Of a stretch of 64,000 nucleotides of DNA, positions 35,594-38,889 are shown one piece after another. Under the pieces are notes generated by a model. That model ran no database searches. It worked only from the letters and a program-made list of their open reading frames with translations, and was not told the DNA's origin. Numbering within the stretch: the stretch's first letter is position 1; each line of letters starts with the position of its first letter. Made by a program: the position numbers and the translations under genes. Source of the stretch: Planctomycetota bacterium (lineage in GTDB: Bacteria; Planctomycetota; PLA2; JAEUHO01); assembly GCA_965222115.1 (NCBI GenBank), contig CBDCTJ010000007.1, forward strand, positions 1,824,001 to 1,888,000. Reading direction: 5' to 3'.

Positions 35594-36523
35594 TTGACGC
35601 AAACGGATACCGCTTCATCATCGTCGCCTGAAAGCGGCAGGACGAGCACGTCGCGGAGTATAGGCCTGCTTGTTGTTCGCCTCGCTGGGCTGTGGATCTT
35701 CCTCGGCGGCGTAGCGAAATGGTTATTCGGCGCTCCCGGAGATCTTCCCCGCTTTCTGTGGGATCTGCCCATCGAGCGCGCCACGCTCTTTCCACTTGTG
35801 ATCTCATTTGAGATGGCGCTGGGACTCTTCGCGTTTCTTCGACCTACGCGCGGCTGGTTGCCGATCATTCCGGTGTACCTAGCATTTGTCGCTGTGCTTC
35901 TTACGCAGATTGCGTCGGGTGCCACGTCGTGTGGCTGTATTGGAAGTCAAATCCCGGTGCCGCCATGGCTGATGTTGTCCATTGACCTCGTTTGGCTCGG
36001 ATTGATTTTATTCGTTGCGCGGCCGTGGCGGTGGGGGCGACGCGCGCTTCGGCCACTGCCCCTATTGCTCCCGCTCGTTCTATTGGCGGCCGCATGTCCT
36101 TGGATCTATTCGCGCACCGCGAGCGCCGACGATCCATCCAAGGCGGGTATTGCGTGGGTGGAACCCTCGACGTGGAAAGGCAAGCGTTTCGAAGAGATTG
36201 ACATCTACAAGTGGTTCGACAAGCAAGACATTGAACCCACGGCACTGTACCTGCTCTATGTCGAGAGCTGCGAAGTGTGCGCCGAGCACTTGGATTTGCT
36301 CTACATGCGCGAGCAGGGCGAACGCACGGTGTACCTCATGAAAGTCTGGGAAAAAGATGCGTCCGAGGCCACGCGCAAGGTGCATAAACTACCTAGCGCG
36401 CCCTACATCGAGCCGCGTGAACTGCGCGAGGGCGTCCCCTTTTCTGTTACACCACCTGTCGAGATCGACGTGCGCGACGGCAAAGTCGTGCGGGTCATGG
36501 AGGCGGGGGAGGAGCTTCCATGA
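35594..36523 (+). CDS. MauE/DoxX-family membrane protein with thioredoxin-like CxxC domain
   Basis: TM helices with SCGCIG (MauE-type CGC); C-terminal CEVC and VTPP. Confidence 0.7.
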   Translation: MTQTDTASSSSPESGRTSTSRSIGLLVVRLAGLWIFLGGVAKWLFGAPGDLPRFLWDLPIERATLFPLVISFEMALGLFAFLRPTRGWLPIIPVYLAFVAVLLTQIASGATSCGCIGSQIPVPPWLMLSIDLVWLGLILFVARPWRWGRRALRPLPLLLPLVLLAAACPWIYSRTASADDPSKAGIAWVEPSTWKGKRFEEIDIYKWFDKQDIEPTALYLLYVESCEVCAEHLDLLYMREQGERTVYLMKVWEKDASEATRKVHKLPSAPYIEPRELREGVPFSVTPPVEIDVRDGKVVRVMEAGEELP

Positions 36524-37863
36524 AACGCATTTCCTCTCGATCTGTCGTATCCTCTCGATCAAAGTACGTCCCGATTGCAACACTTGCGGTCGTGGCGTTT
36601 GGACTCGCCTTGGCTCTTGCCAAAGAAGATCCCTCGACGAACAGAAAGAAGGGAGGAGCGGAAGCGAATCCCCTCGTGTGGCATGCCGATCTCTATGAAG
36701 CCCACGCGCTGGCGGCAAAGCACCAACAAGCGCTATTTGTCGTCTTTACTTGACAGCCCTGAAAGGACTGCAAGCAGTTTGCCGAGCAGTTTGTTCGGCC
36801 CACGCCCGAGGTCACGAAGCTTCTCTCCGATATGGTGTGCGTGCGCGTCACGAATATGCGCGGCGTCGATCTCTCGGTTTACCACTTCAACTATGATCTT
36901 ACATTCGTGTCGCTGGTCATGCGGGCTGACGGACACATCTACTGCACCTATGGCGACCGCAACGCGCATTCGCCCGATGCCCATTTGAGTATGGAGACAT
37001 TGGCGGCCGCGCTAAAGGCTGCGAAGGCCCTTCACGATGCTTCGCCGATCGCGGATCGAAGCAAGCCCCTCAAGAGGGATCCCAAGACGCACGTCGAGTC
37101 CTTGTCTTCATACGCTAAGACGTTCGCGCCGAAGAAGCGAAACGAATGTGTCCATTGCCACACAGTCAACGATCTTCAGCGGACCCACTTCGAGGCCAAG
37201 GGCACGTGGAAGCGCATTGACAACTTCAAGTGGCCCGATCTCGCCCAGCTTGGCCTCGAGATGAGCACGCGTGATTCACTGGAAGTCACGCGCGTATCTC
37301 CGAAGTCCATCGCATCGAGAGCAGGCGTGAAAATTGGCGACCGACTTGTGAAGGTTGGCGAGCGCGAGCCGCAGAGCTACGGCGATCTCAAGCGAGCCCT
37401 AGATGAGCTTCCGAAGCGTACGGGAACAGCCACCATCGCCGTCAATCGATCTGGGACAACGAAGACGCTCACGGCGAGACTCAACAAGAACTGGCGAATC
37501 CCCAATGCGGCGACCTTTGCGTGGCGCGGCATGAAGTGGCGCATGGTGCCGCAACCGGGATTTGGCGGTCGTCCTCTATCCGTGGTCCAAAAGCGGAAAC
37601 AGGGCATCGACACCAAGAACTTTGCCTTTCGCGTGGGCTACATCGTGAACTGGGGGCCGCGCGCACACGTAGGTCGAGCGGTTGCCGTTGCGGGGCTGCG
37701 AAAGCACGACGTGGTTGTCGCCGTGGACGGAAAGCAGGATTTCGGAAGCGTTTCCGAGTTCCACGCATGGGTGAGACTCAACAAGAAGGTGGGTGAGACG
37801 TTGCGTGTGGACGTACTGCGCAAGGGACAGCCAAAAACGTTTCGCATCCCCATGGTCAAGTAG
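36520..37863 (+). CDS. Trx7/PDZ-type exported selenoprotein with two predicted Sec (UQPUKDC) and CxxCH heme motif
   Basis: ORFs 36520-36753 and 36832-37863 are in the same frame, interrupted only by TGA at 36751 and 36760 (FVVFT-U-QP-U-KDC). Signal peptide, Trx-like VCVRVTNMRGVDL, ECVHCH, two PDZ-like segments. Confidence 0.8.
36765..36799 (+). promoter_or_regulatory. Candidate bacterial SECIS hairpins
   Basis: ggactg-caag-cagttt (36765-36780) and gccgagca-gtt-tgttcggc (36781-36799) directly downstream of the TGA codons. Confidence 0.5.
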
Positions 37864-37866
37864 CCG

Positions 37867-38889
37867 ATGTCAGAGGCATCGTCCCAGCCCCAACGTACGT
37901 GGCTTGCGCCGGGTCAAATCGAGACGCGAAAATTTCCGGTTACCGGCGAGTCTGCGCCATCGGTAGAGGCCCTTGACCTCGCTTCATGGCGCTTAGTCGT
38001 TGAGGGCGATGTCGAGAATCCCATCTCGTGGACCTACGACGCCCTGTTGGCGTTGCCGCAAGAGACGATCGTGTGCGACATTCATTGCGTTACGGGGTGG
38101 TCGCAGCGCGCCATGTCCTTTCAAGGCGTCCGGTTGTCGCGCGTGCTCGAACAATCTGTGCCTACGCCAGATGCTGCGTTTGTGCTGCTTCGCGCCTATT
38201 CCGATCGCGGGCACGCAACCTCGTTGCCGCTGTCACTTGCATTGGACGACACATGGCTCGTCCATTCGAAGGATGGGAAACCGCTTGCTGTCGAACACGG
38301 GTATCCGCTACGCACGCTTACGCCGTCTCGCTTTTTCTTCAAGAGCCTCAAGTGGGTCCATGAAGTGGTTCTGGCGTCAGACGACCAGCTCGGGTACTGG
38401 GAATCGGAGTTCGGTTACCACAACGATGCCGATCCGTGGCAAGAGCAACGCTTCGTTACCGGCGATGTCAATCGCAACAAGGCCGAAGCGTTCTTTCAAG
38501 CACGATCCCTTGATGCGTTTCGAGGCAAGACGCTGCTGGGCGTAACGTGCCACGCATGGACGCCGCGTTCAAAGGACTTGCGTGATATTCATCTTCGAGC
38601 CTGCGATCTACGCGGCGCCAATCTGCAGGGTGTCGATTTGCGGGGATCGAATCTCACGCGCTGTGACCTTCGAGGCGCCAATCTCACTGGGGCGGATCTT
38701 CGGGGCTGCGATATCGAAGGCGCCAACTTGGGAGGTGCAGTGTTGCGTGACTGCGATTTGCGCGGCGCATTGTTATACGCAGTTCAATTGGAACCGGGCG
38801 CCGACGTTGCCGGCGCCCGATGGGATAATTCAACGCAGTTGCTTGAAGGGGCGCGGCGTTACATGGAACGCCACGCACCACTTGATTGA
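37867..38889 (+). CDS. Molybdopterin-dependent oxidoreductase (sulfite oxidase/MsrP-like) fused to pentapeptide repeats
   Basis: DIHCVTGWS Mo-ligand Cys, HGYPLR, KSLKWV, GYWE; C-terminal (A/C)DLRGANL repeats. Confidence 0.85.
   Translation: MSEASSQPQRTWLAPGQIETRKFPVTGESAPSVEALDLASWRLVVEGDVENPISWTYDALLALPQETIVCDIHCVTGWSQRAMSFQGVRLSRVLEQSVPTPDAAFVLLRAYSDRGHATSLPLSLALDDTWLVHSKDGKPLAVEHGYPLRTLTPSRFFFKSLKWVHEVVLASDDQLGYWESEFGYHNDADPWQEQRFVTGDVNRNKAEAFFQARSLDAFRGKTLLGVTCHAWTPRSKDLRDIHLRACDLRGANLQGVDLRGSNLTRCDLRGANLTGADLRGCDIEGANLGGAVLRDCDLRGALLYAVQLEPGADVAGARWDNSTQLLEGARRYMERHAPLD

Follow-up and report, generated by a model that had tools for sequence, protein, structure and literature searches.

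A Trx7/PDZ gene of a Planctomycetota bacterium with two in-frame UGA codons, predicted to encode an exported protein with two selenocysteines

The Trx7/PDZ family appears in the entries of published reviews as CxxU, i.e., with one selenocysteine (Sec, U). The respective entry of a 2022 review reads "PDZ domain-containing protein, pfam13899, CxxU" (PMC9312934), and the corresponding statement of GOS 2008 places CxxU in a 'putative secreted serine protease MucD' (PMC2398784). According to excerpts of the UxxU literature, this two-Sec form is on record for other bacterial families; no application of it to the Trx7/PDZ family was found in those excerpts, and supplements or the NCBIfam description may hold two-Sec members. 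The family model NF041199, "Trx7/PDZ domain-containing (seleno)protein", is mentioned in the full-text literature by one 2026 review only. Here we report on a gene of this family with two in-frame TGA codons, located at positions 36520-37863 (+) of a 64,000-nt stretch of a Planctomycetota bacterium (GCA_965222115.1, contig CBDCTJ010000007.1, positions 1,824,001 to 1,888,000). The whole stretch is called the window below, and positions given without a contig name refer to it.

The reading frame and its motif in the Trx7/PDZ family

The gene occupies one forward-strand frame of 447 codons, from the ATG at 36520 to the TAG at 37861-37863, when TGA is translated as U. The sole internal stops are TGA at 36751-36753 (codon 78, hereafter UGA1) and TGA at 36760-36762 (codon 81, UGA2), and a TGC codon for Cys84 follows at 36769-36771. 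Translation table 11 divides this frame into an open reading frame (ORF) of 77 aa at 36520-36753 and another of 343 aa at 36832-37863. The initial annotation, made from the sequence letters, had joined these two ORFs into a single frame of 447 codons containing VVFT-U-QP-U-KDC, and the readthrough translation is exactly as it proposed.

The readthrough protein scored 352.1 bits against NF041199, for which the curated cut-off is 300, the match extending over residues 53-444 and profile positions 2-389 of 390; its earlier assignment to the Trx7/PDZ type is thereby confirmed. A six-frame search of the source genome with the same model gave 335.8 bits and the label '2 TGA', and in related genomes matches with 0, 1 or 2 TGAs inside were found in 26 of 41. 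When 30 homologues were aligned, both TGAs of the window gene fell on invariant Cys columns of a C-x-P-C-x-x-C motif, the one-Sec form of which is C-x-x-U-x-x-C and the two-Sec form U-x-x-U-x-x-C. In the general pattern C/U-x-x-C/U-x-x-C, UGA1 (predicted Sec78) takes position 1, a Cys/TGA column, UGA2 (predicted Sec81) takes position 2, at which Sec is already recorded for the family as CxxU, and Cys84 takes position 3, a nearly invariant column. Such a coincidence of both codons with the motif's two invariant Cys columns is unlikely to be due to chance.

The same comparison was extended to 59 distinct loci, namely the aligned set plus 40 loci from named Planctomycetota metagenome-assembled genomes, less 10 duplicates. 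The added loci were found from an 8-sequence alignment, with the Cys form of the motif and CxHCH as patterns; as CxHCH was itself a search pattern, these loci are not usable for counting its conservation. The set comprises 22 UxxU, 26 CxxU and 11 CxxC loci, and in 22/22 UxxU loci the two TGAs stand at motif positions 1 and 2. An alignment of the readthrough translation to homologues had been proposed as a check, and across the 59 loci it shows C or U at both positions. In a wider sample, matches at E <= 1e-60 were present in 133 of 401 Planctomycetota genomes. Among the matches listed (149 rows, counted by hand), 73 have two TGAs, 43 one and 33 none; a further 26 matches lie outside these rows. 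The two-TGA state is common in the family, and is therefore neither an accident nor an assembly error. The initial annotation had regarded UxxU as rare, a view that fails inside this family, given that nearly half of the listed Planctomycetota rows carry two TGAs.

A quick maximum-likelihood tree of 58 rows, from which the short row L095 was left out, placed nearly all Sec forms in a clade of 41 rows (21 UxxU, 20 CxxU), and its well-supported branches force at least four changes of the UxxU state. On this comparison of sequences, the predicted Sec of position 2 is stable, and position 1 alternates between Cys and predicted Sec. The third motif Cys is replaced by Gly or Ser in a few relatives. 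Loci L040, L051 and L048/L058 are of this kind, with motifs such as C-V-P-U-G-P-G and U-D-A-U-G-D-S. Because some members lack the third Cys, positions 1 and 2 constitute the only invariant redox pair of the motif.

The codons themselves were also compared with sequencing data. At both of them, Logan contigs from three runs, X1 and X3 for sample S1 and X4 for sample S2, show 0 differences from the window and carry TGA, not TGC; these runs belong to one study, possibly the assembly's own source, and are not fully independent of it. No RNA run was among those listed for this sequence. In run X2, record 4 (a 700-nt contig of depth 2) contains an exact 30-nt match to 36751-36780, from UGA1 through UGA2 and on. 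Its upstream letters differ, yet still encode ALFVVFT via synonymous codons, and the contig probably stems from another, related strain or species of that sample, likewise with both TGAs.

Selenocysteine machinery and proposed recoding signals

The genome possesses a tRNA-Sec gene (71.6 bits with the Rfam model; called SeC(tca) by aragorn), as well as selB (346.6 bits) and selA (480.7 bits), the latter split between contigs C7 and C1, the ends of which overlap. A selD gene was detected above its cut-off (150.6 bits) at C1:654443-655201 (-). It has a TGA at the catalytic GGUAAK site, by which it is itself a predicted selenoprotein gene. The suggestion to look for selA, selB, selC (tRNA-Sec) and selD was hence borne out for the first three; selD was found as well, in a frameshifted state near a contig end. 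A second selenoprotein gene of the genome, which table 11 would likewise shorten, is SelW-like (Rdx); it lies at C7:2324572-2324787 (+), corresponding to L098:1441-1740, and its in-frame TGA belongs to a C-S-M-U motif. TGA is otherwise an ordinary stop, ending 410 of 1503 long frames. The FdhA of the genome has no TGA and is accordingly of the Cys type, and its DUF1573 copies contain no TGA either.

A hairpin of the selenocysteine insertion sequence (SECIS) type is located within the coding sequence at 36781-36799. It begins 18 nt after UGA2, and such a hairpin is present there in 20/20 of the Sec-type sequences aligned. The typical family form is GACGGGCA-GGU-UGUCCGUC. In the window it is GCCGAGCA-GUU-UGUUCGGC, with 8 bp, a folding energy of -10.8 kcal/mol and a 3-nt apical loop GUU (36789-36791) in which G comes first; UGA2 and UGA1 are located 26 and 35 nt upstream of this loop, respectively. 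Covariation across the alignment was pronounced: 86.3% of cells were paired, 5/8 pairs had changes on both sides, and pair 41-51 occurred as GC 12 times, CG 4, AU 3 and GU once, with none broken. The observed covariation score was reached by 0/500 shuffles, slid controls were only 35-45% paired, and RNAalifold recovered the same stem. The hairpin was not found in the Cys-only homologues, which retained a mean of 0.9 of 7 pairs. A bacterial SECIS model described in a figure legend (PMC13188914, Fig. 2) has a loop of 3-9 nt, G in one of the first two loop positions, a spacing of 16-37 nt and a minimum free energy (MFE) of at most -7.5. The window hairpin lies within all four of these limits for both UGAs, for UGA1 narrowly.

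We propose that SelB and tRNA-Sec would recode both UGAs under the direction of this hairpin, and that the product would carry U-x-x-U-x-x-C where the active site of a DsbD-gamma-like thioredoxin (Trx) fold lies. Judged from the sequence, it is very probable that Sec is inserted at both UGAs. For the reading as a whole, i.e., one functional gene for an exported Trx7/PDZ protein, with UGAs 78 and 81 recoded to Sec via the SECIS at 36781-36799, we estimate a probability of roughly 0.82.

A second, smaller hairpin directly 3' of UGA2, typically AAGGACU-GCA-AGUCCUU, is seen in two-Sec relatives. Its loop starts 16 nt after UGA1, the first loop base being the G of the Cys84 codon. At least 5/6 register pairs are formed in 17/22 UxxU, 2/26 CxxU and 0/11 CxxC loci, the mean MFE of the three classes is -5.58, -1.45 and -1.05 kcal/mol, respectively, and 18/22 UxxU loci have an MFE of -4 or lower. 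The relation also holds where classes are nested in one another on the tree: L065, a UxxU locus among CxxU loci, has the mini-hairpin with changed base pairs, and L032, L035, L064 and L049, CxxU loci among UxxU loci, are without it. Only four phylogenetically independent pairs are available; the hairpin changes in the same direction as UGA1 in 2.9 of them on average and in the opposite direction in 0 (sign test, p about 0.25). The association between the mini-hairpin and UGA1 is consistent, but it is not statistically established. In most two-Sec relatives the mini-hairpin would probably help to decode UGA1.

A number of observations weigh against the proposed reading of the window gene. Its mini-hairpin is weak and shifted (36766-36779, 5 bp, loop CAAG, -3.1 kcal/mol, 3/6 register pairs), and the spacing of 35 nt from UGA1 to the SECIS loop is close to the upper limit of 37 in the legend of PMC13188914. 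The fold of the whole region is not unusually stable (z -0.89), and since the SECIS-type hairpin lies in coding sequence, its conservation is partly protein-level. The window protein sits on a long branch (1.46), with 38-44% identity to two-Sec relatives in alignment A3 and 26-44% across the 30 homologues of alignment A2; one database fragment shares 71% identity with it. The selD gene carries several frameshifts and stops in the assembly. It lies within the last ~1.2 kb of C1, and where the end of C1 overlaps the beginning of C7 (328 nt), the two sequences differ by 4 indels and 0 mismatches, so that the visible error mode of the assembly is indels rather than substitutions. We attribute the selD frameshifts to indel errors because of this error-prone contig end, a real loss being possible. 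The genes next to the window gene are not conserved beside its homologues, so there is no conserved operon and the context offers no clue to function. Finally, redox function, export, diselenide and heme are all predictions.

Given the weakness of its mini-hairpin, the larger SECIS of the window gene probably serves both codons. A tandem arrangement, in which both UGAs encode Sec but the mini-hairpin serves UGA1 and the larger hairpin UGA2, is a possible though distinctly less likely explanation. It would account for the way the mini-hairpin follows the UxxU class (17/22 versus 2/26 and 0/11), for its presence in L065 and its absence from L032, L035, L064 and L049, and the 16-nt spacing equals the lower bound in the model legend (PMC13188914). 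In the window, on the other hand, the mini-hairpin is weak and shifted, three other UxxU loci are likewise above -4 kcal/mol, and the typical mini-hairpin MFE of -6.6 is above the -7.5 cut-off of that model. The four independent pairs (p about 0.25) are too few to reach significance, and a 2026 study, in the part dealing with UxxU hydrogenases, favours a single SECIS for both UGAs (PMC13582414).

Domains, predicted function and gene context

The protein begins with a putative Sec-type signal peptide (residues 1-34; 36520-36621), read from the sequence as a basic n-region, a hydrophobic segment at 17-34 and A-L-A before K35; hydrophobic N-termini were found in homologues too. In the Pfam scan, Thioredoxin_7 (PF13899, DsbD-gamma-like) covers residues 54-115 (36679-36864) and includes both UGAs, with the C/U-x-x-C/U motif following strand 1, PDZ_6 covers residues 255-295 (37282-37404) and PDZ_2 residues 389-443 (37684-37848). 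The initial annotation had named a Trx core, CxxCH and PDZ segments, all of which are present; it had put the Trx core in the second part of the frame only, which is not the case, as Thioredoxin_7 spans the TGAs.

An AlphaFold2 model of residues 51-447, built from 30 homologues, reached a pLDDT of 92.4 and a pTM of 0.89. In a wide structural search its Trx domain (model residues 1-126) matched 3f9u_B best (Z 13.4, rmsd 2.4, 116 residues aligned), and other matches were 2ju5 (DsbH, Z 9.9) and 1vrs_D (DsbD-gamma, Z 8.8). The first PDZ domain matched PDZ domains of DegS, DegP and RseP, and the second those of Deg2, DegQ and MamP. Sequence and Foldseek searches of solved structures returned PDZ-containing proteins only, the Trx matches coming from the wide structural search. 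An assignment as an HtrA/DegP/MucD serine protease was considered and rejected: the model degP_htrA_DO gave 43.7 bits against a cut-off of 416.2, for residues 246-436 only, and no protease family appeared in the Pfam scan of the readthrough protein. As the HtrA/DegP models match only the PDZ part, far below their cut-offs, the protein is not a protease.

The mature protein would be an extracytoplasmic selenol/thiol-disulfide oxidoreductase, the tandem PDZ domains of which would hold peptide or protein substrates. We take Sec81 and Cys84 to correspond to the CxxC positions of the classical Trx motif, with Sec78 as an added upstream residue. Sec81, in the place of the first Cys of CxxC, would attack, and Sec78 and/or Cys84 would resolve, giving a diselenide or a selenenylsulfide. 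As columns 78 and 81 are invariant and Cys84 is sometimes missing, the 78-81 pair may be the core redox couple, which here would be a diselenide.

Between the Trx and PDZ domains, a C-V-H-C-H sequence (residues 210-214; 37147-37161) is a candidate site for binding heme c (CxxCH) or a metal. The C-x-H-C-H pattern is invariant in 30/30 homologues, i.e., at C210, H212, C213 and H214, and H172 is nearly invariant. For the linker (residues 138-250) no Pfam family was found even at E <= 10 and no cytochrome c family, and the structure searches barely reached model residues 130-192. The genome contains a CcsA/CcmF-type maturation protein (PF01578, 88.5 bits), which makes heme attachment possible only; that a heme c, or else a metal, may sit at CxHCH is guesswork based on the motif alone.

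With respect to such a site, it is also conceivable, though we consider it unlikely, that U-x-x-U-x-x-C is mainly a metal or metalloid site (e.g., for Hg, Cu, As or Fe-S), perhaps in combination with CxHCH and His172. Three chalcogen residues at a spacing of three do resemble metal-binding motifs, C210, H212, C213 and H214 are invariant and H172 nearly so, and the third Cys is missing in some relatives. However, the fold and the position of the motif are those of thiol-disulfide oxidoreductases such as DsbD-gamma and DsbH, no metal-handling genes are conserved beside the homologues, and no metal-binding family was matched. Somewhat less likely still is a more elaborate scheme, in which a Sec78-Sec81-Cys84 relay would exchange electrons with a covalent heme c, the PDZ domains would deliver substrates and two stacked hairpins would direct recoding. 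If true, this would amount to a new kind of extracytoplasmic redox enzyme and to the first natural tandem bacterial SECIS, weakened in this gene.

As regards decoding, a further alternative is that only UGA2 encodes Sec and UGA1 is read as Cys, by a SelB-dependent tRNA of the tRNA-ReC/SelC* type or by near-cognate readthrough, giving CxxU. The sections of the 2026 study relevant here describe tRNA-ReC, which reads a SECIS-directed UGA as Cys, and report an enrichment of tRNAs resembling it where genomes encode UxxU hydrogenases; they propose that a single SECIS may be enough for both UGAs of these enzymes and state that with such a tRNA one or both UGAs might be Cys (PMC13582414). The repeated switching of position 1 between Cys and TGA (at least four changes on the quick tree) and the distance of 35 nt from UGA1 to the SECIS loop would fit as well. 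Nevertheless, no second Sec-like tRNA was found in the assembly, in which aragorn called one SeC(tca) and one 74-nt Cys(gca) tRNA and 13/13 sub-threshold matches to the Rfam tRNA-Sec model coincide with ordinary tRNAs; at about 90% completeness of the assembly, this does not establish the absence of tRNA-ReC. In addition, TGA is kept at position 1 in 22 distinct loci, and 18/22 of them have a dedicated hairpin (MFE <= -4), suggesting selection for specific recoding. We thus regard a Cys at UGA1 as improbable. That the gene is a pseudogene or the product of an assembly error, the 343-aa ORF at 36832-37863 being the real product or non-functional, is hardly credible, since, in spite of the division of the frame under table 11, the indel errors at contig ends and public gene calls that give the downstream piece only, the two TGAs are the sole interruptions and both lie on invariant Cys columns, the same two-TGA state recurs in 22 distinct loci of many genomes, contigs from four runs agree, the downstream ORF alone would lack signal peptide and active site, and the protein is conserved upstream of UGA1.

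The start codon is preceded at a distance of 5 nt by a Shine-Dalgarno-like GGAGGAG (36508-36514, +). The upstream gene (35594-36523, +; 309 aa) matches a MauE/DoxX-like membrane domain only weakly (22.2 bits, below cut-off), and its TGA stop (36521-36523) overlaps the ATG of the selenoprotein gene as ATGA, which suggests translational coupling of the two. The downstream gene (37867-38889, +) starts 4 nt after the selenoprotein stop. It combines an Oxidored_molyb domain (sulfite-oxidase/MsrP-like, 33-178) with C-terminal pentapeptide repeats (approximately 237-322), an unusual combination. A tblastn search with both neighbours across 69 other loci (10 of them duplicate copies from the same species, and one, L091, yielding no motif) gave one weak match (L027, to the Mo domain, on the opposite strand), and among 128 flanking ORFs of 26 loci there was no family common to more than four loci. 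Elsewhere in the assembly, aragorn reported two abutting tRNA-His genes (C7:3040164-3040308) with the anticodon gtg and the unusual atg, and an 87-nt tRNA-Ala(cgc) at C7:756756-756842. Contig C6 (48116 nt) has a G+C content of 39.7%, compared with 55-59% in the other six contigs, and may stem from a foreign element or from contamination during binning.

Public records and comparison with known systems

The prediction that standard annotation breaks such genes agrees with the public records: 54/54 database relatives are C-terminal pieces of 318-381 aa, 71-82% of the query, and two NCBI records named 'Trx7/PDZ domain-containing (seleno)protein' begin downstream of the redox motif. As far as the entries of the reviews go, the gene described here is a two-Sec variant of a catalogued family, a variant that is common in Planctomycetota and missing from both reviews and gene models. 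With matches in about a third of the sampled genomes, the Trx7/PDZ family is among the more widespread predicted selenoproteins of this phylum, and about half of its listed copies have two Sec codons, compared with the one Sec of the review entries. Public protein sets hold pieces without the active site; their correction would give the signal peptide and redox motif back to hundreds of gene models and would alter selenoproteome counts. With CxxC, CxxU and UxxU forms intermixed, and an extra hairpin that tracks UGA1, the family also offers a natural series for studying how SelB reads UGAs six bases apart, and what a Trx active site gains from a second selenium.

Compared with the NF041199 family as recorded in the review entries, the gene shares the Trx7 domain, the CxHCH linker, two PDZ domains and Sec at motif position 2 (features taken from the alignment), and it differs by a second Sec at position 1. 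The periplasmic Trx domains of the DsbD-gamma and DsbH type (3f9u, 2ju5, 1vrs) resemble it as the best structural matches of its N-terminal domain, in agreement with Pfam Thioredoxin_7, but they have a CxxC with Cys only and no fusion to PDZ domains or a CxHCH linker. Its C-terminal half matches the PDZ domains, tandem or single, of HtrA/DegP/DegQ/MucD, RseP and MamP. In MamP, minimal CxxCH heme units accompany a PDZ domain, and it is the PDZ domain only that is matched (model residues 295-397).

SelL is a Prx-like selenoprotein in which UxxU forms a diselenide. The likeness lies in UxxU at the predicted redox site of a thioredoxin fold. SelL is eukaryotic, has its SECIS in the 3'-UTR, belongs to another Trx-fold subfamily and has no PDZ domains. 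A parallel in decoding is provided by the other bacterial UxxU proteins, in which, according to the excerpts of that literature, two UGAs six bases apart likewise replace the Cys pair of CxxC, decoding by a downstream SECIS has been proposed, and CxxU forms are interspersed with UxxU forms on the tree. The present gene differs from them in that its predicted product is exported, is of the Trx7/PDZ type and has a third Cys three residues on, and most two-Sec members of its family have, in addition, a mini-hairpin tied to the first UGA.

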